DNA of 64,000 nucleotides from a virus (lineage: Duplodnaviria > Caudoviricetes), in IMG/VR virus record IMGVR_UViG_3300028805_000067, positions 71,256 to 135,255 of that record; one strand, given 5' to 3'. Below, piece by piece: positions 1 through 62,893 of the stretch. Positions within the stretch are counted from its first letter, which is position 1. Every line of letters begins with the position of its first letter. A model generated the notes under the pieces. It worked only from the letters and a program-made list of their open reading frames with translations. It was not told the origin of the DNA and searched no databases. The position numbers were made by a program, and so were the translations under genes.

Positions 1-80
1 ACTGTTGTTACCCCGAGAACCCAAGGACTAAGGAGTTTTTATTGCCGACTGCGTGAACTCTCATAGTGTTAAACACGCTC

Positions 81-130
81 GTGATTGTGGTGGATTTGAA
101 CCACCTTGCCCTTATGGCTTCCATTCAACC
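81..130 (-). ncRNA. tRNA-like minihelix (acceptor stem plus T-arm), not a full tRNA
   Basis: Minus strand TGGTTG..GCCATAAGGGC..GGTGG-TTCAAAT-CCACC-A-CAATCA: canonical T-loop closed by a 6-bp outer stem, with no D or anticodon arm. Confidence 0.4.
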
Positions 131-226
131 ATATTCAAGGGGTGGCGTGGCGTTGCCACCCCTGTATCTTTATAACCCAACTTGGTACGCACTGTTAGTA
201 GGCGTGTCAGGGAAGGAGTGCAAGGG

Positions 227-619
227 TTAAGCCCTTGCGAACACCTTAGCACCCTTATAAGCTACCATTTCCTCGTAAGTGAGTGGTGTCTTTTCCTTGT
301 TGTCCTTATAGGCTACCGCCTTGCCAGACTTAACAAGTTCCTTAAGACGAGGGGATACTTTCTGCGAAGTCCACTCTTCACCGATTGAACGAGCGATTGT
401 GGTTGCAGTTGCAGGCTCTGCGGTAAGTGCGTTATATACCGCCTCCATAGCCTTAGCATCCGCCTCAATCTCTGCCTTGCTCTTGCCTCCGCTTGACTTG
501 CGGTTAGCAATAGAGTTCTTAAGCTGAACGAGCTTATCATTGAGGTCTTTGTCATCTTTTACATTTGCGCCATTGAGAACCGCATCAAGTGCGGATACAT
601 AAGAATACTTATCTGCCAT
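227..619 (-). CDS. putative winged-helix DNA-binding protein
   Basis: RBS AAGAGGTG before ATG at 619; C-terminal TATTIARSIGEEWTSQKVSPRLKELVKSGK is HTH-like; own promoter at 657-685. Confidence 0.6.
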   Translation of the reverse strand: MADKYSYVSALDAVLNGANVKDDKDLNDKLVQLKNSIANRKSSGGKSKAEIEADAKAMEAVYNALTAEPATATTIARSIGEEWTSQKVSPRLKELVKSGKAVAYKDNKEKTPLTYEEMVAYKGAKVFARA

Positions 620-881
620 AATTAGCACCTCTTTCTTTTTTTATTTTTGTAAGTTTATTATATCATATTTTGTTCGGTTTGTCAAGTGTTTTTTAAAAAT
701 TTTTTATTTTAGTGGCTATGCGCACTTGCCACATGGTTGGTAGAATTTTTGTCACAACCCCTTGCACCACCTATATGGGGTTTTGTTCCGAATTAGCTTC
801 ATTATGTTTAGCACCTCTTTTCTTATCTTGTGTCTTTATTATACCATATTTTTTTGAGTTTGTCAAGAGTTTTTTTAACTT

Positions 882-924
882 TTTTCAAGTGAACCGTAAC
901 TGTTTCAGCCAACCCACCTTACTT
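882..924 (-). ncRNA. structured RNA motif, copy 1
   Basis: 43-nt ungapped match to 9207-9249 with compensatory stem changes; just downstream of promoter 954-982, no ORF. Confidence 0.6.
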
Positions 925-1089
925 TGTTTTCTCTCTTAACCTTTTGTACCTTTATTATAACATATTTTCTTGAATTTGTCAAGAGTTTTTTATTTTTTGT
1001 TAAGATTTTTGTCTGCCTCGCAACGGATTGTTTCTTTTCTTAACTGTCTACATTGTACCACAAAACCATAAAAATTACAATCGGCAAAT

Positions 1090-1119
1090 TGCATAAATTT
1101 TAGGATTATTTTTTGTGCA
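1090..1119. promoter_or_regulatory. TGCACAAA-N14-TTTGTGCA-like operator, copy 1 of 5 (others start at 5146, 5546, 6371, 8702)
   Basis: Inverted repeat always 9 nt upstream of a non-consensus -35 box. Confidence 0.7.
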
Positions 1120-1138
1120 ACTTTTTTGCAAATTTTGC

Positions 1139-1167
1139 TTGACAAATTGTTGAAGATATGGTATAAT
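1139..1167 (+). promoter_or_regulatory. rightward sigma70 promoter firing into 39-bp hairpin H1
   Basis: TTGACA-N17-(TG)-TATAAT perfect consensus; no credible downstream ORF. Confidence 0.7.
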
Positions 1168-1174
1168 GGAATTT

Positions 1175-1213
1175 TCGGCGCGGCGACGCAAAGTGCGGCT
1201 GTCGCCGCGCCGA
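1175..1213 (+). repeat. 39-bp GC-rich palindrome H1
   Basis: TCGGCGCGGCGAC-N13-GTCGCCGCGCCGA, 13-bp perfect stem. Confidence 0.85.
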
Positions 1214-1218
1214 CAAAC

Positions 1219-1242
1219 AAAAAAGGTGGCATCCGCCACCTT
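1219..1242 (-). terminator. intrinsic terminator
   Basis: AAGGTGGC-GGAT-GCCACCTT followed by a T-run on the minus strand. Confidence 0.75.
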
Positions 1243-1486
1243 AATCTTCAATTTCTGGATGAGATTCTAAAAAACTGTCTGTAATATCTTCTGAATAATC
1301 TTGTATATCGTTAAAGAAGTAATCATATGCTTCATCATCGGTACAATTTAGTATCATCTCTTGTATTGCTCCAAAAACATCATCATAATTTTTGAAAGGT
1401 AGTTTTTCATGTGCCGCCTCTAAAGCATCCAAAATATCTCCATCATCTGGTAAATTACAAGTTATAGTGCGTGTTAATGTTAGCAT
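1241..1486 (-). CDS. hypothetical acidic protein
   Basis: ORF with AAGGAGG RBS. Confidence 0.75.
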   Translation of the reverse strand: MLTLTRTITCNLPDDGDILDALEAAHEKLPFKNYDDVFGAIQEMILNCTDDEAYDYFFNDIQDYSEDITDSFLESHPEIED

Positions 1487-1501
1487 ATATGTACCTCCTT
1501 T

Positions 1502-1690
1502 TTATTTATCCCGAGAGCGGAATATTTCATCCCACTTTTTACGCTCTTCTTCTCTGCTTTTCTGAATAGCTTTAAGTATATTTAGAATGAATATCAGAGT
1601 TCCTTCAACAATAGAACATATTGCAAGAGGCACTCCCACATTAAAGCCACATAGATACAAAACACCAAATACAACTATTACAATATCCAT
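1502..1690 (-). CDS. small membrane protein
   Basis: Hydrophobic N-terminal two-thirds, charged tail, AAAGGAG RBS. Confidence 0.7.
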   Translation of the reverse strand: MDIVIVVFGVLYLCGFNVGVPLAICSIVEGTLIFILNILKAIQKSREEERKKWDEIFRSRDK

Positions 1691-1708
1691 TTTTATTATC
1701 GCTCCTTT

Positions 1709-1981
1709 CTATTTTACCCATTCACAATCACTATCTTTTAATATCTGTTTAACCTTATCAGCGACAAAAGATGTAGTATTCTGATCAAGATCTAATAAAT
1801 CTTTTTGACTTAATCTGTATGTGATAAGTTTACTTATTGAGCGTAAAGCAAGATATTCATAGTATTTTATTGAATACTTTTCTTCTTCTTCATTTGCATC
1901 CCACATCATATTTTCAACTGCATTTTTAATAACACTGTTAAAATTTTTATCAGGTACATCAATTGCAAGTGTAATTTTCAT
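1709..1981 (-). CDS. hypothetical protein
   Basis: ORF with AGGAGG RBS. Confidence 0.75.
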   Translation of the reverse strand: MKITLAIDVPDKNFNSVIKNAVENMMWDANEEEEKYSIKYYEYLALRSISKLITYRLSQKDLLDLDQNTTSFVADKVKQILKDSDCEWVK

Positions 1982-2031
1982 TTTTACCTCCTATGGCGGA
2001 GGCGCCTTATCAGCGCCCGCCGCCCCCTTTT

Positions 2032-2226
2032 TTATTCTATGTAATCATCATAAATTATTACAGATAAATCAACCTCGCCCCATATTTCATCAGGTACAGT
2101 CAATTTAGTACGCTCAATAATTATATCGGAATCAAATTCTCTTATTAGTTTTAATAAGCCATTAGTTTCCATTTCACGAACTTCTCTAAAAGCACTGTCG
2201 CTTGCTTTGGTGATATATACTTTCAT
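2032..2226 (-). CDS. hypothetical protein
   Basis: ORF with AGGAG RBS. Confidence 0.7.
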   Translation of the reverse strand: MKVYITKASDSAFREVREMETNGLLKLIREFDSDIIIERTKLTVPDEIWGEVDLSVIIYDDYIE

Positions 2227-2240
2227 TACTATATCATCTC

Positions 2241-2432
2241 CTATGCATTTTTAGTTATCTCAACATATTCTTTAAGTATTTTTACAAGTGCCGAGAAAAA
2301 TTCGTCCGCATCATCATTTTCAGAAGTTACAAACATGGCTTTAAGACCAGCCGCCGCCAAAACTTTACCAATGTCTTTATCAGCAGTTGCCAATATTTTA
2401 TTGAGTTCTTCATTTTTTACATAAGTTTTCAT
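2241..2432 (-). CDS. hypothetical protein
   Basis: Start moved to MKTYVK, which has an AGAGG RBS and lies below promoter 2472-2500. Confidence 0.7.
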   Translation of the reverse strand: MKTYVKNEELNKILATADKDIGKVLAAAGLKAMFVTSENDDADEFFSALVKILKEYVEITKNA

Positions 2433-2658
2433 TTTAGTTACCTCTTTTCTTTTTGTTTTTATTGTGCTTTTATTATAACACATTTTTTTGTTTTTGTCAA
2501 GACCTTTTTTATTTTCTTTAGGATTTTTTCACCGCCTTGACTTCGGTGCGCTTCCTTCATTTGATGGTTTAATTATAACAGATATTAGGCATTTTGTCAA
2601 TAGTTTTTTAATAAAAATTTGAAATATTTTTTTCTAACGATACTGCTTGTTGGATAAT

Positions 2659-2697
2659 GCGGAGCGCGGTCGGGGAACCCGAAGGCCCGCGCTCCGC
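2659..2697 (+). repeat. 39-bp GC-rich palindrome H2
   Basis: GCGGAGCGCGG-N17-CCGCGCTCCGC. Confidence 0.85.
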
Positions 2698-2724
2698 CAA
2701 AAAGAAAAGAGGGCATCCGCCCTC

Positions 2725-3027
2725 TTAATGTCCGAATCTGATATAGTGTTTTATCCAACTGTCACCAAAGTATTCTTTTAATTCTTGCTCGTACTGTGGA
2801 TAGTTTTGCAAAATTGATATCTTATAAATGGTATCATAGTCCATCATACAGTACCAACTATTATCGTCACCCTTGTAAAATCTTAATGTATCAAGAATGA
2901 AATTCATTGTTTCTTGCTTTAAATCAGCTTTAATACAATCCTCAAGGCTTACGAACTGACTATTAAAGATAGGTTTAATGTTAAAGTCTGTTACTTTTAC
3001 TCCACTCATTTTAGGTTCAAAATTCAT
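2725..3027 (-). CDS. hypothetical protein
   Basis: Start moved to MNFEPK with AAGGAGG RBS; terminator at about 2700-2726 follows. Confidence 0.7.
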   Translation of the reverse strand: MNFEPKMSGVKVTDFNIKPIFNSQFVSLEDCIKADLKQETMNFILDTLRFYKGDDNSWYCMMDYDTIYKISILQNYPQYEQELKEYFGDSWIKHYIRFGH

Positions 3028-3041
3028 TTTTATGTCCTCCT

Positions 3042-3212
3042 TTATTTGTAATATATTTCTGATGAAAAGTAATAGTTGTAAACTATAATCGCAACTTTTT
3101 CGATCTGCTTTACATATTTGCGCACTGTTATTGCGGATTCTTTGGGAATTACTCCCCATACTTCCAAATCATCAATATGTTCCATAAGGTCATCATACAT
3201 TTTTTCAGTCAT
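3042..3212 (-). CDS. hypothetical protein
   Basis: Start moved to MTEKMY with GGAGG RBS, overlapping the upstream stop. Confidence 0.65.
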   Translation of the reverse strand: MTEKMYDDLMEHIDDLEVWGVIPKESAITVRKYVKQIEKVAIIVYNYYFSSEIYYK

Positions 3213-3447
3213 CTTTTGTTCCCTCCTCCCAGAGTACATTATAAAGTCTACATAAGTCTGCCCATTCCCACTCGTCATCCGCAAACCATTCATAGTCCTC
3301 TTCTATTGCCTCATCAGGTATACCTAACTGAATCCAGTCGCTCCATATAAGCTCATCCCCGAGGTCTATGATACTCTCATTCATTTCCTTTGCAAGAGCA
3401 ATACGCTCATCTCTTGTTGTTTCATAAAAATCTCTTGTGTTTACCAT
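3205..3447 (-). CDS. hypothetical acidic protein
   Basis: AAGGAGG RBS; promoter 3479-3507. Confidence 0.75.
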   Translation of the reverse strand: MVNTRDFYETTRDERIALAKEMNESIIDLGDELIWSDWIQLGIPDEAIEEDYEWFADDEWEWADLCRLYNVLWEEGTKDD

Positions 3448-3563
3448 TGTTGGTACCTCCTTGTTTGTTTGTACCTAAAGTATATCATATTAGGACGGAT
3501 TTGTCAAGTAGTTTTTTGCATTTTTGAAAAAATATTTTTAGAGGGTGTTCTCTGTTAGACTTT

Positions 3564-3602
3564 GCGGAGGCTGTGCGCAAAAAGCCCACGCACAGCCTCC
3601 GC
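3564..3602 (+). repeat. 39-bp GC-rich palindrome H3
   Basis: GCGGAGGCTGTGCG-N11-CGCACAGCCTCCGC, 14-bp perfect stem. Confidence 0.85.
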
Positions 3603-4097
3603 TCATTTCGTGGAGGCTGTTAGTCTTTTGTAAAATGCTTGCACATTTATATTTAATTCTTGTTTAAATGTTTCAATCTTGTCTGGGTGCATCTTGTAAA
3701 ACCATATCGCCCAAGCGGTCGCCGCCTTTTCAAGTGGAAGATTAAAATATAATTTATTAGCTACATGATGCAATGGTTTTGGCAGCTTGTCAATTCCGAT
3801 TTTGCAAATCATATTCCACATGGTGTTAGTATCAGAAAAGTATTTGAAAGTTTTTAAATGTCCGATTTCATGCAGAATTGATAATATCATCAAATCAATT
3901 GTAGCTGGCTGAAAATCATATTTCCAATTCTTTTTTATAAATGAACAAAAGTCTTTGTCACATTTGTCACACTGTAAAGAGTAAGCGATTTGTTTGCGGT
4001 TTTTAGATACCCAAAAGTTTTGGTCAAGTGTTGCGGTTAAGGTTAAACCGCAACACTCTTTTATCATTTCGCTCATTTGTTTATTTAATATTTTCAT
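3603..4097 (-). CDS. putative zincin-like metallopeptidase (HExxH)
   Basis: ILHEIGH motif with a downstream E in LPLEKAATAWA. Confidence 0.55.
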   Translation of the reverse strand: MKILNKQMSEMIKECCGLTLTATLDQNFWVSKNRKQIAYSLQCDKCDKDFCSFIKKNWKYDFQPATIDLMILSILHEIGHLKTFKYFSDTNTMWNMICKIGIDKLPKPLHHVANKLYFNLPLEKAATAWAIWFYKMHPDKIETFKQELNINVQAFYKRLTASTK

Positions 4098-4306
4098 AAT
4101 TTTTTTAATACCTCATCAAGCCTTTCATCAAGGTAGGCATTGTTTACCATATAAAGTGCGGTTTTCAGTCCTTTTACTACACCCTTATAGTAGATTGCAT
4201 CCTCAGTTTCATCATTGTCGTCAGCATCCTTGCGATTCCATTGATAAATGTCTATCATCTGTCTCAGGGATGTCTCAATTTTTCGTGCCAGTTCTTCATT
4301 ACTCAT
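4094..4306 (-). CDS. hypothetical protein
   Basis: GGAGG RBS; promoter 4342-4370. Confidence 0.75.
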   Translation of the reverse strand: MSNEELARKIETSLRQMIDIYQWNRKDADDNDETEDAIYYKGVVKGLKTALYMVNNAYLDERLDEVLKKL

Positions 4307-4429
4307 TTTTTAATTCCTCCGTTTTTTTATTTTGTAATTAAAGTATAACACATTTTAGGATAAAAGTCAAGTATTTTTTTGAAAAAAATTAAAAATATTT
4401 TATTTAGAGGGCATAATATTAAAGTTAAT

Positions 4430-4468
4430 GCGGGTCGCTGCCGCGAAGAACTTGTGGCAGCGACCCGT
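4430..4468 (+). repeat. 39-bp GC-rich palindrome H4
   Basis: GCGGGTCGCTGCCGCGA..TTGTGGCAGCGACCCGT, three G-T pairs on the plus strand. Confidence 0.85.
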
Positions 4469-4496
4469 CCGAGCCACCGCCACAGTTTTGGAGGAT

Positions 4497-4814
4497 TTAT
4501 TCAAAATTATTTTCAAAAAGCCAATCTTCAATTACCTCGTCAGCAAGTGTTTCATAATCTACATTTTTCATGGCAAGCATTGCCCAGTTGTAAGCATCAG
4601 AACCAAGTCGATAATTAACACTGAATCCGATACTATCTTCACCAAGTGACTTTAGCATTTCGATTACATTTGTTTTGAGGGTTTTATCTTTATTCATCTG
4701 TAAGATTTCATCATCCTCGTAGAAAAAGGATAGTGAAAAATCTCCATATAAAAAATCTTCTTTAAACTTGTATGTTTCATAGTTTTTATATTTGCTATCA
4801 GGTCTATAATACAT
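4497..4814 (-). CDS. hypothetical protein
   Basis: Start moved to MYYRPD with AAGGAGG RBS. Confidence 0.7.
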   Translation of the reverse strand: MYYRPDSKYKNYETYKFKEDFLYGDFSLSFFYEDDEILQMNKDKTLKTNVIEMLKSLGEDSIGFSVNYRLGSDAYNWAMLAMKNVDYETLADEVIEDWLFENNFE

Positions 4815-4824
4815 ATTTGCCTCC

Positions 4825-5076
4825 TTAATGCGCCTCATAGGTTCTGTTTGATACTAAACCTGAGCCACAGTTCGTGACGAACCAACAATACTCATCAGTG
4901 CTCATAATCTCACCAGTTTCTGTATCAATTGCATCCACTATAGCGCTATACTCATAATAGTCTATATATGGCAATACAGAGTTCAGATAATGGATTACTG
5001 AATCCATATCATCAAAATCCTCACGCTCAAGAATGTAAAATCCTGTTGTGTCGCTTATTTCTACTGTGTATCTCAT
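4825..5076 (-). CDS. hypothetical protein
   Basis: Start moved to MRYTVE with GGAGG RBS; promoter 5108-5136. Confidence 0.7.
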   Translation of the reverse strand: MRYTVEISDTTGFYILEREDFDDMDSVIHYLNSVLPYIDYYEYSAIVDAIDTETGEIMSTDEYCWFVTNCGSGLVSNRTYEAH

Positions 5077-5205
5077 ATTGAGTACCTCCGTTTCATTTGA
5101 TAGCATAAGTATACTATATTTTAGGTAAAAAGTCAACATACAAAATGCACAAAGATTAGATTGAATGTTTGTGCACTTTTAACAAAAGAACAATGTGATT
5201 TGCCT

Positions 5206-5448
5206 TTATGAAATATCCAGATATATAGGCTCTAAATCGTGACAATCAGCAAATTCACTCGTTTCACCGTTGCCTTTATAGACTTTGAAATCTCTAATAA
5301 TATCACCATACTCTTCTATTTTACGCAGGCGACCACACACCCAAGATTTAAGATATGAATCTCTATACCGTTTATACGGCTTGCTGGTGCATACAATAAT
5401 GGTAAGATCCTCGGTGAAAACTACAAGGGTAAAAATCTGTTCGTTCAT
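5206..5448 (-). CDS. hypothetical protein
   Basis: MNEQIF start with GGAGG RBS; promoter 5508-5536. Confidence 0.7.
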   Translation of the reverse strand: MNEQIFTLVVFTEDLTIIVCTSKPYKRYRDSYLKSWVCGRLRKIEEYGDIIRDFKVYKGNGETSEFADCHDLEPIYLDIS

Positions 5449-5594
5449 AATAAAATCCTCCATAGGGTAAGTAGTGGTTTAAGGGTCTCTTCCTTAACTC
5501 TGGATACATTGTACCATATTTTAGGAAGAAAGTCAACATACAAAATGCACAAAATTGAATGGAATTTTTTATGCAATATATACAAATAGACAAT

Positions 5595-5633
5595 GCGGGC
5601 CGTCGACGCGAAAAACTTGTGACGACGGCCCGC
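5595..5633 (+). repeat. 39-bp GC-rich palindrome H5
   Basis: GCGGGCCGTCG-N17-CGACGGCCCGC. Confidence 0.85.
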
Positions 5634-5683
5634 CAAGACCGCCGTCCAAGTTTGGAGGATATTCTGTAATTTTAGTAAATTGA

Positions 5684-5730
5684 TTGGGAGCAAGGGAGTC
5701 GAACCCTACTACTGAGCCGTCAGCTCCCAA
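5684..5730 (-). ncRNA. tRNA-like minihelix 3' of ORF 5736-6056
   Basis: TTGGGAGC..AGGG-TTCGACT-CCCT-T-GCTCCCAA: acceptor-like stem plus T-arm and one short internal hairpin. Confidence 0.5.
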
Positions 5731-5735
5731 GTGGA

Positions 5736-6056
5736 CTAAAATGTCCACTCATCGAAAAGTAACTGGGCGATTTCTTCAAAATTTACATTATTTATTGCAA
5801 GCAATGCCCAACCATATACCTCTTTATAGAGTTTATAGTCTACATTAAATTTAAATGTTTCTACTACTGCATCTCTTAATTTCTCTGCTATATCTGCAAC
5901 CATAAACCCTTCTGCCATATTTTTTGAAACATCTTCGCAATACAGTTCAAATTCTTCATTTGGATCGTCATATACATTTTCAAGAGTTGCATCTGCGAAA
6001 AAATCTTTGTAGCATTCCCAAGTAGGATAATTTGAAAAACCATTAACTTTTGCCAT
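5736..6056 (-). CDS. conserved hypothetical phage protein
   Basis: N-terminal NGFSNYPTW resembles the YNGWxNYxTW motif of small phage early proteins; RBS and promoter present. Confidence 0.7.
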   Translation of the reverse strand: MAKVNGFSNYPTWECYKDFFADATLENVYDDPNEEFELYCEDVSKNMAEGFMVADIAEKLRDAVVETFKFNVDYKLYKEVYGWALLAINNVNFEEIAQLLFDEWTF

Positions 6057-6094
6057 TGTATTTACCTCTTTTCTTATTTTCTATAATGATTATA

Positions 6095-6301
6095 TCATAT
6101 TTTTTTGTTCTTGTCAATACCTTTTTTCATAATTTTTACACGCCTGCGGATGTTTCCGTTGTACCTGTGTGCTTCTACAATTGTATTAAGAACCTTTAAA
6201 TCATTGCATCTATTTGCAAAGTCTACAAACTGTGCGACTACATTATTGTAGCCATTGTAAATGTTGTACATTTCCTGAATGAGTTCCTGTTTATTCTTCA
6301 T
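6095..6301 (-). CDS. hypothetical protein
   Basis: GGAGG RBS; promoter 6333-6361. Confidence 0.7.
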   Translation of the reverse strand: MKNKQELIQEMYNIYNGYNNVVAQFVDFANRCNDLKVLNTIVEAHRYNGNIRRRVKIMKKGIDKNKKI

Positions 6302-6420
6302 TTTTTTGTCCTCCGTTCTTTATCTTGACTAAAATATACCATATTTTAGGTAAAAATACAATAGATAAAATGCACAAAAAATCAGCAAAAAATTTATACA
6401 ACCTGTCTATTGACAAAACA

Positions 6421-6459
6421 GCGGATGGCGCGCGACAGATGCTGCAGCCCGCCATCCGC
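6421..6459 (+). repeat. 39-bp GC-rich palindrome H6
   Basis: GCGGATGGCG-N19-CGCCATCCGC. Confidence 0.85.
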
Positions 6460-6485
6460 TCAATAAAAAAGAGTAGGCTTTTCGC

Positions 6486-6647
6486 CTACTCATATTCAAC
6501 AGTCCAATTGGTTGCGTAAATGTAATCATCAAATTCTTTTCTGTACTTGTACAGGTCGATTTTGTGTCCAAGTCTTGACCATTCAACTGCTTCCCTGTGG
6601 TTTGCAGTGAGTTTGTTTGTTACGGTGTCGTGATAGATAGTTTTCAT
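6486..6647 (-). CDS. hypothetical 53-aa protein (not in the ORF track)
   Basis: MKTIYHDTVTNKLTANHREAVEW...; AAGGAG RBS, promoter 6679-6707, terminator at about 6464-6491. Confidence 0.7.
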   Translation of the reverse strand: MKTIYHDTVTNKLTANHREAVEWSRLGHKIDLYKYRKEFDDYIYATNWTVEYE

Positions 6648-6684
6648 TGTTTAAATCTCCTTTGTTTTTTGTAATTTTATTATA

Positions 6685-6861
6685 TCATATGTCTTTTAAT
6701 TTGTCAACCATTTTATTTAATTCTTTCTGATATTTATAAGTTCTATTGCCTAAGCACCAATCGCATCCTCCGTGGTTTCTGCAAGTGCAATCAAAAGCCT
6801 TGCTACCCTTATATTGTTTGCGGTGTTCTTTTCCATACTCAATTGCTTTGTTCATGCTCAT
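6685..6861 (-). CDS. small Cys-rich (putative Zn-binding) phage protein
   Basis: DCTCRNHGGCDWCLGNR; AAGGAGG RBS. Confidence 0.7.
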   Translation of the reverse strand: MSMNKAIEYGKEHRKQYKGSKAFDCTCRNHGGCDWCLGNRTYKYQKELNKMVDKLKDI

Positions 6862-6939
6862 TTTTTTATCCTCCTTGTTCTTTTGTATCTTTATTATACC
6901 ATAGGGCTTGGCTTTTGTCAAGCCCTATTTTTAACTTTT

Positions 6940-7248
6940 TTAGCAATATGCCAAGTTCATTTTTCTCCATCCAAGAATTGAGATTTGGTTATGTTCTCTG
7001 CCTATTGCAAGTGCATCACATTTGCGTGTTACACGCTTACTCAGGTCGATATACCATATCCCGTCTGCGAACCAAATACCGCAGTTTCCACTATATGCTT
7101 TGATAGCTTTCATAGCCTCATGCATATCTTTTGTTTCAATACCCTCGGTAGCCACTTGCCAACCTGTCTTATAGGTTATAGGCTTGCCATTTTTAAGAGT
7201 TAAGCCGCCGTTGTTCTCAATTTTCTTAAGTGTTCTAATGTTTATCAT
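6940..7248 (-). CDS. hypothetical protein
   Basis: Start moved to MINIRT with GGAGG RBS; promoter 7279-7307. Confidence 0.7.
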   Translation of the reverse strand: MINIRTLKKIENNGGLTLKNGKPITYKTGWQVATEGIETKDMHEAMKAIKAYSGNCGIWFADGIWYIDLSKRVTRKCDALAIGREHNQISILGWRKMNLAYC

Positions 7249-7366
7249 ATCAGGTTCCTCCGTTCCTTTGATGATTAAAGTATACCACATTTCGGGTATT
7301 TTGTCAATGGGTAAAAATAAAAAAGTTGAAAAAATTTTGGCTGGATCAGCTCTCTTACTGGAACTT

Positions 7367-7405
7367 GCGGACTGCGCGCAGAGTTTGCGCCAGCGCGCAG
7401 TCCGC
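7367..7405 (+). repeat. 39-bp GC-rich palindrome H7
   Basis: GCGGACTGCGCGC-N13-GCGCGCAGTCCGC. Confidence 0.85.
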
Positions 7406-7443
7406 CAAAGAAAAAGACACTACTTTGCGTAGTGTCCTGTATT

Positions 7444-7626
7444 CTACTCGCCTGCGTAGTAGGCTGAACGGTAGCACTGAGGGTTCATTTCATTTTCAGT
7501 GTGAACAACCTCAAGTGCCCTGTCCTGAGTACTGTAAGCTCCATAGAACCAGTACTCGCCGTCACAGTAGGAAATTACCCACCAATCATACTCTCTTGCA
7601 TAGTCAGGAACATTGTTAATCTTCAT
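7444..7626 (-). CDS. hypothetical protein
   Basis: AGGAGG RBS; promoter 7659-7687. Confidence 0.7.
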   Translation of the reverse strand: MKINNVPDYAREYDWWVISYCDGEYWFYGAYSTQDRALEVVHTENEMNPQCYRSAYYAGE

Positions 7627-7694
7627 AATTAAGTCCTCCTCTTGTTTTTGTTGACTTTATTATAACATAATTGTTAAGGTTTGTCAAGCCTTTT

Positions 7695-7895
7695 TTAATA
7701 ATCTTTTCCGATTTCTACAACCATATCCCAAGCGATTTTTTCAAGTGAGAGATTGCATTTTTTTGCGTATCGTGTGACATCTGAATTAGCCTGCAGGCTT
7801 TTCATTACTTTGTTTAATGCGCTGTCCCAATTCTTTGCGGAAAATTCCTCGGGCAAGTCTACAAGATTGCGGTTGCGTGTAATTCTGTAATTCAT
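7695..7895 (-). CDS. hypothetical protein
   Basis: AGGAGG RBS; promoter 7926-7954. Confidence 0.7.
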   Translation of the reverse strand: MNYRITRNRNLVDLPEEFSAKNWDSALNKVMKSLQANSDVTRYAKKCNLSLEKIAWDMVVEIGKDY

Positions 7896-7968
7896 ATTTA
7901 AGCCTCCTGAACTTTTTGTAATTCTATTATATTACATTTTTGTAAATTTGTCAAGTGTTTTTTACATC

Positions 7969-8178
7969 TCATTCCGTTCCGTAAATATCCCACCAATTCT
8001 CCTCAGCTACAGGCTCAAGTCTAACATTTTTGCCTCTGCCCAAGCAATAGATATCTTCTTTTGTAGGTGCGTTGATAATTCTATCAACATCTGCCTGTGT
8101 ACCGTTTGCGTATACCATACAAGTTACGGTTACTCCATTGTTGAATGTGCAATCTGCAACGATCATGTACTTCTTCAT
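7969..8178 (-). CDS. hypothetical protein
   Basis: AGGAGG RBS; promoter 8224-8252. Confidence 0.7.
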   Translation of the reverse strand: MKKYMIVADCTFNNGVTVTCMVYANGTQADVDRIINAPTKEDIYCLGRGKNVRLEPVAEENWWDIYGTE

Positions 8179-8310
8179 AATTTAATCCTCCTAATTATTT
8201 GTTCTTTCCTTTTTTCTGATTAAAGTATATCATATTTTAGGATATTTGTCAATAGTTTTTTTCAAAAAAACTAAAAAAAGTTTTTTTAAACCTCCTCCCA
8301 GTAGAATAAC

Positions 8311-8349
8311 GCGGCTCAGTTGCCGCAAAAGCAAATGCAACTGAGCCGC
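8311..8349 (+). repeat. 39-bp GC-rich palindrome H8
   Basis: GCGGCTCAGTTGC-N13-GCAACTGAGCCGC. Confidence 0.85.
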
Positions 8350-8375
8350 CCGATTGTGACGGCTCAGTGAGTGGA

Positions 8376-8624
8376 CTAATATTCAATATCCTCGCAGAAT
8401 ACAACAGGCTCTCCGCTGAAGTACTTGTAACCAACAGAGTATTTTCTTTTTAGGATGCAAGCACCTGCCTCGTACCATGTTGCCTCTACATCATCAACAA
8501 TATTCTTGGTGTCTGCACCGAGCAGAAGTGCCTCAGCAGTGCGGTTTGCCTCTTCCCAAGTGGTCCAGAAAGTGGTCTTAACAGCGGTGTTAGTGGTTGT
8601 GTAGGTAAGCATAGTGTTCATCAT
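8376..8624 (-). CDS. hypothetical protein
   Basis: GGAGG RBS before MMNTML; promoter 8664-8692. Confidence 0.7.
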   Translation of the reverse strand: MMNTMLTYTTTNTAVKTTFWTTWEEANRTAEALLLGADTKNIVDDVEATWYEAGACILKRKYSVGYKYFSGEPVVFCEDIEY

Positions 8625-8740
8625 AATTGTTTCCTCCATTGTTCTTTCCTTTTTTCTGATTAAAGTATATCATAAATTGGATATTTTTGCAATAGTCAAA
8701 ATGTACAAAATTTTTAATATTTTTTGTGTACTCTGCACAA

Positions 8741-8947
8741 TCACTGCTTTACTACTGTGATAAGCCTGTTGTAAGTATCGGTAATAACAACCTTGTCATT
8801 TACAAATTTTTCAGCCATTTTGTTTGCGTAAGCATATGCCTGATCATAGTCATTAATCTGAGCTTCGCTAACTACTTTCCAGATGATACCGAAGAAGCCT
8901 TCGCCTTTGTTTCTCATAACCTTTACTTTGTAACCTGTTCCTGTCAT
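8741..8947 (-). CDS. hypothetical protein
   Basis: GGAGG RBS; promoter 8988-9016. Confidence 0.7.
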   Translation of the reverse strand: MTGTGYKVKVMRNKGEGFFGIIWKVVSEAQINDYDQAYAYANKMAEKFVNDKVVITDTYNRLITVVKQ

Positions 8948-9075
8948 ATTTTAATCCTCCGTTTCTTTCTTTCTTTATCTTGACTAAAGTATATCATATT
9001 TTGGGCGTTTTGTCAATAGTTTTGCGCAAAAAAACTTAAAAATTTTTATTTGGAAACATATATAATTAGAAAAAT

Positions 9076-9114
9076 GCGGTTCGGCTACGCAACGCACTGC
9101 CGCAGCCGAACCGC
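9076..9114 (+). repeat. 39-bp GC-rich palindrome H9
   Basis: GCGGTTCGGCT-N17-AGCCGAACCGC. Confidence 0.85.
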
Positions 9115-9206
9115 CCAATAAAAAAAGAGCCAAGTTAGTTTAACTTAGCTCTCTCATGTGATATTCATTTGTTTTACACCTCGTTTCTGAAAACCCCTGT
9201 TGCACC

Positions 9207-9249
9207 TTTTCAAAGCACCCGTAACTGTTTCAGCCAAGCGCCCCTACTT
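9207..9249 (-). ncRNA. structured RNA motif, copy 2
   Basis: See 882-924; lies between promoter 9281-9309 and terminator at about 9119-9152. Confidence 0.6.
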
Positions 9250-9324
9250 AGTGGCTGTTCTTTTCTCTTTTCTTGTCTTTATTATAGCACTCAATATCTA
9301 TTTTGTCAAGTGTTTTTTCACTTT

Positions 9325-9747
9325 TTAAAAAATAATTTTTGCGCCTTTTGTTTCAAGCCAGTAGCCTGCATGACCTGCTTTTATCCATGCATTGATATTT
9401 GCTTTTGTATCATCAATTAGCATCCCATCTTCTTTGATGTAATCTACTTTTTTACCACTACCAACTAAACAAATAAATTTATCACTTGTAATTTCAGGAA
9501 TGTATTTTGCAAGCCAATCAAGTTTGCCAAGTTTAGCATCTTCAGAAGCACAAGCAGTCAGGATGTAAACATTGTTGCCCTGAGCAATCAGCTTACGCAC
9601 AAGATTAACATTTTCTACAAAAGGCTCAAGGTTTGCAATCCATCTTCTCTGCATAACAAGATAACGCTTTGTAGCATCATAAGCCTTGTGGAAGTTAGCA
9701 AGAACACCGTCCATATCAAAATAGTAAGTGGCAATAGTAGTTCTCAT
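9325..9747 (-). CDS. HAD-family 5'(3')-deoxyribonucleotidase-like phosphatase
   Basis: FDMDGVLANF motif I, ILT motif II, K, and LIDD motif IV. Confidence 0.8.
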   Translation of the reverse strand: MRTTIATYYFDMDGVLANFHKAYDATKRYLVMQRRWIANLEPFVENVNLVRKLIAQGNNVYILTACASEDAKLGKLDWLAKYIPEITSDKFICLVGSGKKVDYIKEDGMLIDDTKANINAWIKAGHAGYWLETKGAKIIF

Positions 9748-9892
9748 AGTGACATCCTCCATCTCTTTATCTTGGCTTTATTATACCTCTGACTTGTGAA
9801 TTTGTCAAGTCTGTTTTGTATATTTTTTAAAAAAATTTTTATACAAAAACTGCTGCATAAAAATTTCTTGGAATGGATCAAGTAAAATAAAC

Positions 9893-9931
9893 TCGCTGCC
9901 TTTACGGCATATTCATTTGTAAAGGCAGCGA
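9893..9931 (+). repeat. 39-bp palindrome H10 (variant ends)
   Basis: TCGCTGCCTTTAC-N13-GTAAAGGCAGCGA. Confidence 0.65.
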
Positions 9932-10150
9932 CGAAAAATAGAGAAGCTCTCAAGGTTTTAAAAAATAGTGCTAGAAAGTGTATAGGCGGGGGGTGTATAT
10001 TGGGAAAAGATCCAGCTTTTTTTAAAAAAAGAAAACGCCACCCCCTCTCCCCGTCTAAATCTTTTTTCAATTTATTAAACACAATTTAACTCTCCGCCTA
10101 AATTTTTACTAAAACGACAGCACCTTTATCACTTTTTGCCCAATAAAAAA

Positions 10151-12595: not shown

Positions 12596-14358
12596 TTATG
12601 GATGTTATTGAACAAGAATTACAACAATTTATTAAAATTGATAATAATTTAAAAAAGATAGGTATTTCACAAGCGCGTATTGAAGCTTGTATGCCAAAAC
12701 TGCGTAAACAAATTGCATTTTGGCGAGAGTATCCTGATTTATTTGTAGACTTTATGTGCGGCATAGATGCTGAAGGCGGAAAACCAAAAGAAACATTAAA
12801 TCTATTCTTTTATCAGCGTGTATTTTTGCGAGCGGCTATTCGTCATAGACTGGCCTATTGTGTTTTTCCACGAGCCTATTCTAAATCCTTTCTTAGCTTT
12901 TTAACGCTAATAGTTAGATGTATTTTATATCCTGGTGCTCAATTGTTCGTTACTACTGGTGGTAAAGCTCAGGCAGCTAGTATAGCAAAAGAAAAAGTTA
13001 ATGAAATTTGCTATCTTGTACCTGGTTTCCATAATGAGATTAACTGGACAAGAGGCGCATCTAAAGAAAGTAAAGATTATGTAGAATATATATTCAAAAA
13101 TGGTAGTAATTTAGCGGTTGTCGCTACCAGTAATGCTACGCGTGGTCAGCGTAAAACAGGTGGCTTAATGGAAGAGGTAATTCTTATAGATGGCCAGCTT
13201 TTGAATGAAGTTATCTTACCTTTGATGAATGTAGATAGACTTTTGCCAAATGGAACTAGACATGAAGAAGAAAATGTAAATAAATCACAAATATATATTA
13301 CGACTGCAGGCTTCAAACAAACATTTGCTTATCAGAAGCTGATTGAAATAGTTATTCAGCAGCTTATTAACCCAGACGCCGCGATTGTTTTAGGTGGAAC
13401 ATGGCGGGTTCCGGTAATGGAACATTTGCTTTCTAAAAATTTTGTAAATGAATTAAAAGATGCTGGAACATATAATGAGGATTCATTTGCACGAGAATAT
13501 GAGTCGCACTGGGTGGGGGATTCAGAAAATGCTTTCTTTTCTTCTGACAGCTTTGATAAAAATAGAATTTTATTACAGCCTGAATATGAATATTCTGGAA
13601 GAACTTCTAAATCTGGATATTATATATTATCTGTCGATGTAGGTCGTAAAGGTTGTACTTCTGAAGTGTGCGTATGGAAAGTTACACCACAAGTACAAGG
13701 AGCAAGTTTAAAATCATTAGTAATGTTATATTCTTATGATGAAGAACATTTTGGTCTGCAAGCTGCTCACTTAAAAAATTTATATTATAAATATAAAGCT
13801 AGACGGTTAATCATAGATGCCAATGGTCTTGGTATTGGTTTAGTAGACTTTATGGTAATCCCAACTACAGATCCTGATACTGGAGATGTTTATCCACCAT
13901 TTGGTGTAGATAATGATGAAGATGGTACATATAAAAAATTTAAAACTAGTGATATGGAGGCTAATGCTATGTGGCTGATTAAAGCTAATGCGCCTATAAA
14001 TACTGAAGCACATACAAATGCACAGACTCAATTGTCTAGTGGCAAAATAAAGCTATTAATAGACCAAAATACAGCTAAAGCTAAATTATTAGCTACTAAG
14101 CGTGGGCAAGAAATGACAGTAGAAGAAAGAAATAAATATTTACAGCCTTATGTAATGACATCTATTTTAAAAGAACAAATGGGTAATCTTATAGAGGAAA
14201 ATGAAGGTATTAATATTATATTAAAACAAAAAAACAAGGCAGTTTCTAAAGATAGGTTTTCTGCTTTTGAATATGGTTTATATTACATTAAGTTAGAAGA
14301 AGATTCTAAAAAGCGTAGAAAAGGTAATCGTATGGCTGATATAATGTTTTGGAATTAA
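12592..14358 (+). CDS. terL: terminase large subunit
   Basis: FYQ Q-motif, PRAYSKS Walker A variant, LMEE Walker B, YITTAG coupling motif, LSVDVGR and KDRFSA nuclease motifs. Confidence 0.92.
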   Translation: MIMDVIEQELQQFIKIDNNLKKIGISQARIEACMPKLRKQIAFWREYPDLFVDFMCGIDAEGGKPKETLNLFFYQRVFLRAAIRHRLAYCVFPRAYSKSFLSFLTLIVRCILYPGAQLFVTTGGKAQAASIAKEKVNEICYLVPGFHNEINWTRGASKESKDYVEYIFKNGSNLAVVATSNATRGQRKTGGLMEEVILIDGQLLNEVILPLMNVDRLLPNGTRHEEENVNKSQIYITTAGFKQTFAYQKLIEIVIQQLINPDAAIVLGGTWRVPVMEHLLSKNFVNELKDAGTYNEDSFAREYESHWVGDSENAFFSSDSFDKNRILLQPEYEYSGRTSKSGYYILSVDVGRKGCTSEVCVWKVTPQVQGASLKSLVMLYSYDEEHFGLQAAHLKNLYYKYKARRLIIDANGLGIGLVDFMVIPTTDPDTGDVYPPFGVDNDEDGTYKKFKTSDMEANAMWLIKANAPINTEAHTNAQTQLSSGKIKLLIDQNTAKAKLLATKRGQEMTVEERNKYLQPYVMTSILKEQMGNLIEENEGINIILKQKNKAVSKDRFSAFEYGLYYIKLEEDSKKRRKGNRMADIMFWN

Positions 14359-14787: not shown

Positions 14788-16446
14788 GTGGTAGAAATGA
14801 TAAATAGAAACATTATACAAACAACGGCTGCCGCCCCAGCAAAAGCATATAGAGATTTAAAAATCAGTTCAATAGATACTGTAAAAGACGCTACTATTCC
14901 TGAGAGCACATTAAAGCGTTTTAATAAAGATTTTGCTGATAAGCAAAAAATTTTGCGTGCAATTCAAAATTATGATATAATTAAATTGCGTGAGTTATCA
15001 AATTTTTATTTTAGCGCAAGCGGTATATATAGTAGATTATGTAGATATATGTCTAATATGTATCGTTTTGACTGGTATATTACTCCATATTTTCCAACTC
15101 ATAAAAATCCTAAAGCATTAGAAATGATGGCGGGTAATAGAGTATTAAGCAAAGAAGAACAAAAAGCTGTTGATACTTTTTATAATGTGCTTGAGTTTAT
15201 GGATAGATTTGAAGTAAAAAAGAATTTTCAAGATATTGCTTCTGTTGTAGTGCGTGAAGGCTGTTATTATGGTTATATTGTTGACGCACCAGATATGGTA
15301 ATGATACAAGAACTGCCTATTAAATATTGCAGGTCTAGATTTAATCATTTAGGCAAGCCTACCGTAGAATTTAACATGGCATATTTTGATGATGAATTTT
15401 CAGATGATTTAGCTAGAAAAGAGGTTTTAAAACTTTATCCACCAGAGTTTGCGGATGCTTATAAAAAATATAAAGCTGGTAAAATTAAGCCTGTTTTTAG
15501 TGGTGATACTGGCAGTTGGCATCTGCTAGATAGACAACGAGCTTTTAAGATAAATACTGGCGGCAGTGGGGCCGGTGGCGTAACAGATATGCCATTTTTA
15601 ATTTCTGTTATTCCCGCAATCATAGATTTAGATGAAACTCAAGATTTGGCTAAACAAAAATTACAACAAGAACTTATTAAATTAGTTGTACAAAAATTGC
15701 CACTTGATAAAAATAGTGAAATGGTATTTGATCCAGACGAAGCAAAGGATATACATAAGAATGCAGTGCAAATGGTTGCTAAAGCAGTAGGTGTTAATGT
15801 ACTTACTACTTTTGCAGATGTATCTGTAAATAGTTTAACTGAAAGCTCTCAGTCTAGTGTAACTGAAACCGTACTGGACTCCGCAAAAGATAATGTTTTT
15901 GATGAGGCCGGTGTATCACAGATGCAATTTAACTCTGATAACTCTGTTTCTCTTGAAAAATCTATATTAAATGATGAAGCTTCTTTGTATAATATGATTT
16001 TGCAATTGGAAAGATTGTTAAATGATATATTGGAATTAAAATGGAATAATAAAAAGAAATATTGGTTTAAGGCTCAAATACTTTCTACAACTATTTATAA
16101 TTATAAAGAAATGAGTAAATTGTATAAAGAGCAAACTCAATTAGGTTTCTCTAAAATGTTACCGCAAGTTGCTCTTGGACAGAGTCAAAGTTCTATTTTG
16201 GCAAATGTTAAATTTGAGAATGAAATGTTGCAACTTTGGGATCTGTTTATACCTCCTCTTATGAGTTCTACTATGTCTGGTGATTTCTTAAATAATAGAA
16301 CAGAAGGTACTGGTAAAGGCGGAAGTAAGAGTGTTGGCGGTGGCGGAACAGCTGGTGAAGAAAGTAAAGAAGCTGGCAGGCCTACCAATGAGTCACAAGG
16401 TAAACCGACTTCCGAAAAAACAGCAGCTAATAAGGAAGCGCAATAG
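14788..16446 (+). CDS. portal protein
   Basis: 552 aa, located between terL and the protease; SPbeta-like gene order. Confidence 0.8.
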   Translation: MVEMINRNIIQTTAAAPAKAYRDLKISSIDTVKDATIPESTLKRFNKDFADKQKILRAIQNYDIIKLRELSNFYFSASGIYSRLCRYMSNMYRFDWYITPYFPTHKNPKALEMMAGNRVLSKEEQKAVDTFYNVLEFMDRFEVKKNFQDIASVVVREGCYYGYIVDAPDMVMIQELPIKYCRSRFNHLGKPTVEFNMAYFDDEFSDDLARKEVLKLYPPEFADAYKKYKAGKIKPVFSGDTGSWHLLDRQRAFKINTGGSGAGGVTDMPFLISVIPAIIDLDETQDLAKQKLQQELIKLVVQKLPLDKNSEMVFDPDEAKDIHKNAVQMVAKAVGVNVLTTFADVSVNSLTESSQSSVTETVLDSAKDNVFDEAGVSQMQFNSDNSVSLEKSILNDEASLYNMILQLERLLNDILELKWNNKKKYWFKAQILSTTIYNYKEMSKLYKEQTQLGFSKMLPQVALGQSQSSILANVKFENEMLQLWDLFIPPLMSSTMSGDFLNNRTEGTGKGGSKSVGGGGTAGEESKEAGRPTNESQGKPTSEKTAANKEAQ

Positions 16447-40836: not shown

Positions 40837-40893
40837 ACTGATATATTATTTATTTACAAATATATTATATCAAATTTTTTTATTTTTTTCAAA

Positions 40894-51086: not shown

Positions 51087-51131
51087 ATCTCAAACATTTC
51101 CTTTCATTTTTATAATTATATTATATCATAA

Positions 51132-51800
51132 TTATTTTAATTTTTCAAATTTTTGCAATCTTGTTAATGCTTTATCATAATATTCTTTATTTAATTCGCA
51201 CCCTAAGTATCTTCTATTATTTTGTGCTGCAACTAATAATGTGGAACCGCTGCCAGCACAAGGGTCAAATATTAAGTCACCTTCATTAGAATTGTCTAAT
51301 ATTAATTCTTTAATTAGTCCATGATGCTTTTCAGTTGGATGGATGCGATTAGTGCCACCCCAGATAGGATATCTAAATACTGTATTTTTACAATGTGCAT
51401 TAAAAGTACCTTTACTCTTTCTAAACCAAATAGCATTTTCAATACCACTTAAATATACATATTGTCCATTGGATGGTACAGGATTAGTTTTTTCCCATAT
51501 TAGCTGTCTACAAGTTCCTTGTTTAGCCTGTTGTTTGGCGCCAAAAAAAATGCTAATCTCTGATATTTGCTCTCTAGAACACCAAATGATAATACTAGAT
51601 TTAGCAATACGATAGCACTCTTTTAAAAATATATCTAGCGGGAAGGTAACGATATCTGCCTCCCCGCGGTCTAAAATAAATAAGCCATTTGATTCTCTTG
51701 AAATAACACCATAAGGTATATCAGTATGTATTAAATCAACTGAATTAGATGGCATAGTTTTCATATATTCTATACAATCAGTATTTATAAATTCATTCAT
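51132..51800 (-). CDS. N4-C/N6-A DNA methyltransferase (beta class)
   Basis: DIPY motif IV N-terminal, HPTEK, FDPCAGSGS motif I C-terminal. Confidence 0.88.
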   Translation of the reverse strand: MNEFINTDCIEYMKTMPSNSVDLIHTDIPYGVISRESNGLFILDRGEADIVTFPLDIFLKECYRIAKSSIIIWCSREQISEISIFFGAKQQAKQGTCRQLIWEKTNPVPSNGQYVYLSGIENAIWFRKSKGTFNAHCKNTVFRYPIWGGTNRIHPTEKHHGLIKELILDNSNEGDLIFDPCAGSGSTLLVAAQNNRRYLGCELNKEYYDKALTRLQKFEKLK

Positions 51801-62819: not shown

Positions 62820-62893
62820 ATCTACTTTTTCCTTTCAAAATAACTTTTTTCTTAACTTTGTATAATAATTATATCATAATTTTTTATTTTTGT

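Follow-up and report, generated by a model that had tools for sequence, protein, structure and literature searches.

A putative host-activator box shared by early promoters of a phage and chromosomes of gut and rumen Clostridia

Introduction

This study concerns a box of two 8-bp arms, TGCACAAA-N14-TTTGTGCA, that precedes early promoters of the tailed phage held as IMG/VR record IMGVR_UViG_3300028805_000067. The stretch analyzed here, referred to as the window, is the right 64 kb of this virus record, which has 135,255 bp and a G+C content of 33%. The closest described counterparts of the box are binding sites of the PucR family. The characterized PucR-type regulators are activators, with the exception of PucR, which both activates and represses (PMC7652997). 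PutR and AdeR sites are inverted repeats of 17 and 24 bp, and the octameric GabR of Corynebacterium glutamicum recognizes two 21-bp inverted repeats immediately upstream of the -35 hexamer, both of which are needed for strong binding (PMC7652997). Like the sites of PutR (PrcR) at putBCP and AdeR at ald in Bacillus subtilis, and of GabR at gabTDP, the phage box is an inverted repeat directly upstream of a sigma-A-type -35. It differs from them in that its arms are split by 14 or 24 free bases, and in that it is found genome-wide in Clostridia instead of at a single operon and is used by phages.

The yxkF-msmX operon of B. subtilis and its relatives, in which a short PucR-type gene stands directly upstream of the gene for a multitask sugar ATP-binding cassette (ABC) ATPase, is on record as regulated by CcpA through a catabolite-responsive element, cre (PMC8849057, PMC5730181). 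In 15 sampled Bacilli genomes the box described here lies exactly in this junction. A literature search found no function or site described for YxkF.

Class I promoters of the cyclic AMP receptor protein (CRP) of Escherichia coli offer an analogy of mechanism only. There, a dimeric site lies upstream of a poor -35 in one-turn increments, near -61.5, -71.5 and -82.5, and works through the C-terminal domain of the RNA polymerase alpha subunit (alpha-CTD); the boxes studied here are centred near -59.5, -69.5 and -80.5. The two differ in protein family and motif, and also in the distance between half-sites, which is two or three helical turns here and one turn there. The late A3 promoter of phage phi29, which has no good -35, is reportedly activated by protein p4 from an inverted repeat upstream, with about two turns between its arms, in studies attributed to Badia et al. 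(2006) and the Salas laboratory. The present boxes resemble that arrangement in all three respects, namely a phage promoter without a good -35, an upstream inverted repeat, and arms about two turns apart; p4 is phage-encoded and confined to phi29-like phages, whereas the factor considered here appears to be host-encoded and common to many phage families. Phages also place sites of global host regulators at early or switch promoters, such as Spo0A boxes in phi29 and LexA boxes in some temperate phages. The likeness lies in the coupling of phage development to host state, although those sites are mostly repressive and the geometry found here points to activation.

Boxes and promoters of the phage early region

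The early region of the phage comprises window positions 1-10,100 and about 7 kb further left, and carries short ORFan genes on the minus strand, most of which have their own promoter and terminator. We scanned the window for TGCACAAA-N14-TTTGTGCA, allowing up to three mismatches and using shuffled controls. Five matches were obtained, compared with 0.85 expected, and no shuffle reached five. Four of them are N14 boxes, starting at 1090, 5146, 5546 and 6371, while the fifth, at 33980 with three mismatches, is probably due to chance. A further box with an N13 spacer, outside the N14 pattern matches, was read directly from the sequence at 8702. Pattern scan and direct reading together recovered all five boxes that the sequence-only reading had reported at 1090, 5146, 5546, 6371 and 8702, along with the spacing it had described: 9 nt separate each box from a minus-strand -35 hexamer (TTGTAA, TTGACT, TTGACT, TTGTAT and TTGCAA, respectively), all of them non-consensus. 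Each of these hexamers is followed by 17 nt and a good -10.

Box 1 (TGCATAAA-N14-TTTGTGCA; 1090..1119) lies between divergent promoters. On one side, 9 nt away, is the weak leftward promoter TTGTAA-17-TACAAT (1052..1080, minus strand), which has an extended -10, lacks a dedicated open reading frame (ORF) and leads into strong promoters at 982, 866 and 685; on the other, 19 nt away, is a rightward consensus promoter, TTGACA-17-TATAAT (1139..1167, plus strand), behind which a GC-rich hairpin and a second hairpin make up a candidate RNA of about 80 nt. The other four boxes stand 9 nt from minus-strand promoters of ORFan genes. The perfect box 2 (TGCACAAA-N14-TTTGTGCA; 5146..5175) precedes TTGACT-17-TATACT (5108..5136), which drives the genes at 4825-5076 and 4497-4814, and box 3 (TGCACAAA-N14-TTTATGCA; 5546..5575) precedes TTGACT-17-TACAAT (5508..5536), which drives the gene at 5206-5448. 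Box 4 (TGCACAAA-N14-TTTATACA; 6371..6400) is followed by TTGTAT-17-TATATT (6333..6361) and the gene at 6095-6301, and box 5 (TGTACAAA-N13-TTTGTGTA; 8702..8741 with its third half-site) by TTGCAA-17-TATACT (8664..8692) and the gene at 8376-8639.

The third half-site of box 5, TGCACAAT, is at 8734, 3 nt past the distal arm TTTGTGTA, and its presence was confirmed. The two together form an N3 dyad, a 19-bp inverted repeat, which had been likened to PucR/CdaR-family boxes such as that of B. subtilis PutR. The sequence of the PutR site is reportedly TTGTGG-N5-CCACAA. Only the TTGTG-N7-CACAA skeleton of the dyad, by the spacing of its ends, fits a 17-bp repeat, the size published for the PutR site (PMC7652997); the N14 and N24 forms are without a described counterpart.

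All 16 leftward TTGACA promoters of the window follow the design TTGACA-17-TATAAT or TATACT, and none has a box at the corresponding position; one weak promoter, at 4370, is also without a box, as had been stated. An A5-6 tract occurs in the 11 nt before the -35 in 11 of the 16, in the very place that the box occupies on weak promoters, and looks like the proximal subsite of an upstream (UP) element, a well-established promoter component.

Left of the window, two more perfect boxes are present at genome positions 68961 and 70791, together with an N24 variant, TTCACAAA-N24-TTTGTGCA, at 67252-67291, which is 34 nt from a TTGACT promoter. The whole phage genome has eight copies of the box, all within 13 kb, and the layout of 9 nt and a weak -35 is seen in six of the eight. 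The box at 70791 is flanked on both sides by consensus TTGACA promoters, 19 and 20 nt away, and the association with weak -35 hexamers is therefore a tendency and not a rule. The suggestion that boxes go with weak -35 hexamers only thus holds as a tendency and fails as a rule, since the boxes at 70791 and 1090 also lie upstream of consensus promoters. Four of the phage boxes, that at 1090 included, have a rightward consensus promoter 19 nt downstream that reads into a GC-rich hairpin.

When the phage copies were compared with one another, the arms were 85-92% identical, while spacer, flanks and downstream sequence were 34-41% identical. Recent duplication, which would have left equally conserved flanks, had been named as an alternative; as the flanks have diverged while the arms are conserved, the box is not a plain duplication. 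Sheep-gut metatranscriptome contigs span much of the early region and bridge box 5, with the reservation that transcript starts, strand and level are unreadable from contigs and that DNA carry-over is possible.

Spacing rules of the box across phages

An exact-pattern scan of IMG/VR returned at least 116 contigs with the box. Among the matches listed, only about 20 of these are nucleotide-similar to the present phage, and its early proteins recur in about 22-26. The box extends beyond this phage, and most box-bearing IMG/VR contigs are unrelated to it. A megablast search of the early region against INPHARED phages gave no match, no protein family common to all of 236 box loci emerged when their ORFs, about 12,800 in number, were clustered, and full-text literature searches with the motif strings brought up nothing but primers and unrelated papers.

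Promoter positions relative to the box are strongly preferred. Among the 122 exact IMG/VR boxes listed, sigma-70-like promoters begin 9 (36 cases), 10 (13), 19 (10), 20 (14), 30 (6) and 34 nt (6) from the box end, compared with 0-2 at random positions in the same loci. At the 9-10-nt offset, 79% of the -35 hexamers are non-consensus, and at 19-20 nt about half are TTGACA. In a scan of free gaps between the arms from 3 to 33 nt, peaks were found at N14 (32) and N24 (25), with six more at N25, over a background of 0-4. The everted arrangement TTTGTGCA-Nx-TGCACAAA gave a modest peak at N3 only, instances of which are the half-site at 8734 and third half-sites in several bacterial loci. Around 238 exact boxes of other phages and bacteria, counted after de-duplication, sigma-70-like promoters are found 0-49 nt downstream and point away from the box, and overlap of the box with a core promoter is virtually nil in the viral and the bacterial sets alike.

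The box is a two-fold symmetric site that lies 9 or 19-20 nt from the -35 without overlapping the core promoter, and the features of class I activation, i.e., a sub-optimal -35, no UP element and a helically phased upstream site, are present together. Spacing and offset steps of one turn, combined with the lack of core overlap, make up the putative grammar of an upstream activator acting from one face of the helix, and not that of an operator or an RNA hairpin. The activator-type site proposed in the sequence-only reading is supported by these 238 positions upstream of promoters and by the offsets of 9-10, 19-20 and 30 nt.

The same host protein could instead act as a repressor or silencer, by occluding the UP region or bridging boxes, so that boxed cassettes would stay off until the regulator is inactivated. 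B. subtilis PucR does both repress and activate (PMC7652997), the box spans -74 to -45, where alpha-CTD would otherwise bind, and eight boxes within 13 kb could allow looping. We regard repression as improbable, given that boxes almost never lie over or downstream of a core promoter, that they go with poor -35 hexamers, including the very poor ones of boxed host msmX promoters, and that offsets of 9-10, 19-20 and 30 nt follow the helical phasing usual in class I activation. The box does not fit a phage-specific operator of the CI/Cro type, as its 16 specified bases occur unchanged in at least 116 viral contigs and in chromosomes.

It is barely conceivable that the box has no protein partner at all and is either an RNA hairpin, serving for termination or processing, or the remnant of promoter modules that were duplicated. 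Some bacterial pattern matches are due to chance or are terminators (L119), and a few matches outside this phage (L119, L117) are extended hairpins with T runs behind them and look like terminators; in addition, boxes 2 and 3 share their linker and much of their promoter. Against this stand arms that are invariant and not co-varying, a loop of 14 or 24 nt of free sequence, a position fixed relative to the -35 on the non-transcribed side, and flanks at background identity. An intrinsic terminator or RNA hairpin was accordingly rejected, with no T-run rule being seen behind the boxes. The box was also compared with the DnaA box, CIRCE, cre, Rex, AraR, marbox and Spo0A box, none of which is known to fit it in both sequence and spacing.

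Many unrelated phages carry within the 14-nt spacer a palindrome of their own, different from the box, which recurs in the promoter spacer or in the flanks, next to ribbon-helix-helix-like or CI-like genes (for example, L020:5598, L009:3960, L010:9598, L022:3805, L024:1756, L093:1588 and L107:1386 in IMG/VR). The box is also found 66-71 nt upstream of genes for ribbon-helix-helix-like repressors (a weak NikA-like Pfam match) or CI-like repressors. This pattern fits a general factor that would bind the arms and private repressors that would bind between them, competing with or gating it.

The box in Clostridia chromosomes

Prokaryotes were scanned with the exact pattern, using one genome per species. 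Among the matches listed, about 85% belong to Clostridia, mostly metagenome-assembled genomes (MAGs) of Oscillospiraceae, Ruminococcus, Acutalibacteraceae and Lachnospiraceae from gut and rumen. Whole-genome counts at up to two mismatches, with the reversed pattern as control, gave 24 sites in G003, 17 in G005, 16 in G208, and 8 each in G209 (R. flavefaciens) and G210 (Faecalibacterium), versus 0 in the control for each of the five. An even sample of 201 Clostridia contained 52 genomes with a site at up to one mismatch, and the control 0 of 201. The sites are scattered across many contigs, 45-140 nt upstream of ordinary host genes, among them paralogous operons for extracytoplasmic function (ECF) sigma and anti-sigma factors, solute-binding proteins, LacI-type regulators, an msmX/ugpC-type ATPase, spo0A and an aminotransferase.

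In G003, a single Eubacteriales MAG, more than ten paralogous ECF sigma/anti-sigma operons each carry a box (L239, L244, L253, L254, L258, L259 and L261). These boxes have CCTTCC in the spacer. Behind them come nnnnTACAAAA and an A-tract, then an ECF-type -35 (GYGYRAC) at a distance of about 35 nt, and a AAGTGAAGGGAC leader that is conserved; G208 has similar sites. In a Clostridia MAG from goat caecum, a perfect box (L177:6740-6769) is located 89 nt upstream of spo0A (TIGR02875, 240 bits) and 20 nt from the promoter TTGCAA-17-TAAAAT.

The over-representation of the box in Clostridia chromosomes, its presence in phages of unrelated proteomes and the absence of a PucR-type gene from the phage bear out the earlier suggestion of a host factor. 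More precisely, no HTH_30 gene was found in the phage record, which is about 90% complete. The factor that binds the box is most likely host-encoded. We hold it quite probable that the box is an upstream site of a host factor that phages have copied, a statement that is weaker than naming the factor.

A phage-encoded early protein might instead bind the box and time a delayed-early class. The candidates are two winged-helix-like early paralogues of 130 and 123 aa, encoded on the minus strand at window 227-619 and at L237:9793-10164. A search of 16 early proteins against Pfam and PHROGs gave only a weak HTH_20 match (E 0.0013), on these two; both are expressed from strong early promoters and match phrog_19455, and about 22 related loci with the box share the family. 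With this query, five bacterial genomes that carry the box yielded no homologue, among them G002, in which a phage-like contig has eight boxes at up to one mismatch, and the paralogues were dropped as candidate binders. The identical box also occurs in about 90 unrelated viral contigs, among the matches listed, and in chromosomal regulons. A phage-encoded binder is therefore very improbable.

The yxkF-msmX junction of Bacilli and the Clostridial regulator

Among 201 sampled Bacilli, 31 genomes have a site, usually in one copy, compared with 10 in the control. One site is recurrent, with invariant arms and a variable spacer, and lies between a YxkF-like gene of 283-301 aa and an msmX-type sugar-ABC ATPase gene. 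The YxkF-like gene upstream of the box encodes a C-terminal PucR helix-turn-helix (HTH) domain, HTH_30, with E values of 1e-11 to 1e-16. We built a profile from six YxkF-like proteins (A1) to find full-length homologues in the Bacilli sample. Fifteen box matches follow a YxkF-like gene, 0-110 nt behind its 3' end, and these include 13 of the 14 perfect Bacilli boxes; four of the linked genes are divergent orthologues outside the A1 profile. Two halophilic Bacilli have no regulon and one site each, which is the yxkF-msmX site. The PucR/CdaR family predicted as binder by the sequence-only reading thus gains support from the position of 13 of 14 perfect boxes at the 3' end of an HTH_30 gene, upstream of msmX.

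Toward msmX, the box is followed by 9 nt, a weak -35 (TATTCA, TTTATT or TTTACC), 17-18 nt and a -10, and a cre-like site is present in the spacer. The msmX gene of Clostridia is boxed as well, with TATGAA as the weak -35 at one Clostridial locus; its upstream neighbour is tex-like, as judged by the N-terminal sequence and an S1-like C-terminus. The boxed msmX promoters share the design of the boxed phage promoters.

The A1 profile detects exactly one homologue in each of the five box-rich Clostridia genomes. These proteins have 363-378 aa; GGDEF_2 and HTH_30 domains were found in all three that were scanned, and a weak Diacid_rec match in two of the three. In each of the five genomes this CdaR-like protein is the sole HTH_30 protein above the Pfam cut-off, and its HTH segment is invariant across genera. 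The box is thus adjacent to an HTH_30 gene at the Bacilli junctions and accompanied by one in box-rich Clostridia. Among solved structures, only distant PucR-family fragments were found and no DNA complex. At L485-L489, the CdaR-like gene is followed directly by a gene whose N-terminal sequence resembles ftsE, and at L488 and L489 the gene on the other side of the regulator resembles rsmE.

Co-occurrence was evaluated in 200 Clostridia, binned by the E-value of the best homologue of a query (A2) taken from box-rich genomes. The box was present in 46% of 54 genomes with a homologue below 1e-140 (60 sites), in 36% of 42 genomes between 1e-140 and 1e-100 (16 sites), in 17% of 36 genomes between 1e-100 and 1e-50 (6 sites), in 19% of 16 genomes between 1e-50 and 1e-20 (4 sites), and in 6% of 52 genomes where no homologue was found (3 sites). 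Box frequency and homologue are associated with a Fisher p of 4e-5 and a Spearman rho of 0.40, both uncorrected for phylogeny.

The box could also be a host-factor site for a different conserved DNA-binding protein of Clostridia, in which case its association with yxkF in Bacilli would reflect only the shared target msmX. The host regulon and the promoter phasing do not depend on the identity of the binder, the Clostridial regulator gene has no canonical box, and the arrangement is unlike the published PucR-family sites. Another binder is nevertheless unlikely in our judgement: of the 14 perfect boxes in Bacilli, 13 are directly next to the YxkF-like gene, genomes with the homologue have the box more often, and each box-rich genome has a single HTH_30 gene.

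Other features of the early region

The four rightward consensus promoters with their hairpins occupy window 1139-1262 and L237:11311-11436, 13010-13135 and 14840-14965 (plus strand), each promoter being 19 nt from its box. They start about 7 nt before a GC-rich hairpin of 37-39 nt. A second hairpin behind it is the bidirectional terminator of a convergent gene, and predicted folds have z-scores of -5 to -10. These four units are candidate phage RNAs of 70-90 nt, in part antisense to the leftward cassettes. Where relatives carry N24 boxes, the rightward promoter is 9 nt from the box, and the distance to the far arm therefore stays at 41 nt.

GC-rich palindromes of about 39 bp (GCGG...CCGC, variable in sequence) are located at cassette boundaries, directly after leftward terminators, at 1176-1213, 2659-2697, 3562-3600, 4430-4467, 5594-5632, 6422-6460, 7367-7405, 8311-8349 and 9076-9115. 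The motif GGCTGAAACAGTTACGG is present on the minus strand in two non-coding leaders downstream of early promoters, at 891-914 and 9217-9240. A segment at 5680-5750 resembled a tRNA on visual inspection; ARAGORN did not call it and detects no tRNA in the window.

Outside the early region, a second promoter class, TTGAAA-AAAWTAAAAAWTTTTGA-TATAAT-ATAATT, is found on the minus strand at 40864-40892, 51120-51148 and 62868-62896, with about 11 more copies in the left half of the genome. This class is probably middle or late, and its near-invariant spacer hints at a further factor.

Discussion

The architecture of the box, its conservation and its genomic linkage to a regulator gene are direct observations. 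The explanation that we favor, at somewhat better than even chances, is that the box may be an upstream activating site for an oligomeric host activator of the PucR/CdaR family, of the YxkF type in Bacilli and represented by the single CdaR-like protein in Oscillospirales-type Clostridia. Such a protein would bind the box, would activate rather than repress, the sign being taken from geometry, and would depend on a host metabolite.

In the mechanism that we propose, a PucR-family protein would contact the two 8-bp arms from one face of the helix, with arm centres 22 bp apart, or 32 bp in N24 variants, and an optional third arm 11 bp away. The 9-nt offset would put the centre of the box near -59.5, the place of the A-tract UP element on consensus promoters, and the bound oligomer would recruit RNA polymerase to promoters with a poor -35. 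As the box also precedes ECF-type promoters, alpha-CTD or another subunit common to all holoenzymes would be the simplest guess for the contact. An oligomer that reaches several arms on the same face would explain the combination of N14, N24 and N3 spacings. The boxed phage promoters would then be copies of the design of host msmX-type promoters, and eight early-region modules would require, or be enhanced by, a host regulator already in the cell when infection starts. Among these modules would be the window's four ORFan cassettes and three weak promoters placed in tandem before strong ones, and in four modules the same box would also serve a divergent strong promoter 19 nt away. Any read-out of host nutritional state would depend on the effector of the regulator.

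Several points weigh against this explanation. Three boxed promoters stand immediately before strong ones, where activation would bring no evident benefit. The outward-pointing arms of the N14 and N24 forms differ from the compact inverted repeats of 17-24 bp published for the PucR family. The recognition segment HRNTL-YRL is found family-wide and is not by itself predictive of this motif. The Clostridial protein and YxkF differ in their N-terminal halves and the profile matches positions 83-286 of 291 only, so that their orthology, as judged from sequence, is partial and not proven. The lack of a canonical box upstream of the Clostridial regulator genes gives no sign of autoregulation, and the co-occurrence statistic ignores phylogeny while its query was drawn from box-rich genomes.

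A wider proposal, which we put forward tentatively and at slightly less than even chances, is that TGCACAAA-N14/24-TTTGTGCA may be the operator of an undescribed global regulon of gut and rumen Clostridia. This regulon would be run by the single PucR/CdaR-type regulator beside ftsEX and would be derived from the YxkF-msmX switch of Bacilli. Many unrelated phages, virulent and temperate, would have captured the site for early genes and for promoters of the lysis-lysogeny switch, the temperate ones placing their own operators in the spacer, so that phage development would be gated by one metabolite-sensing activator.

If this proposal is true, the uncharacterized YxkF/CdaR-like branch of the PucR family would acquire a DNA motif, a role and, in msmX, which encodes the motor common to many sugar importers, a core target. 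To our knowledge, almost no transcription-factor regulons are known for Oscillospirales-type Clostridia; the box would define a class-wide regulon in these dominant fibre degraders of gut and rumen. Many phages would be borrowing one host activator site, in a fixed helical phase, for early and repressor-gene promoters, and this would offer a way to test how these phages perceive the condition of their host. The box would also serve as a sequence signature by which uncultured phages could be assigned to regulator-carrying hosts, and as a portable design of activator-dependent promoters for Clostridia that are genetically poorly tractable.

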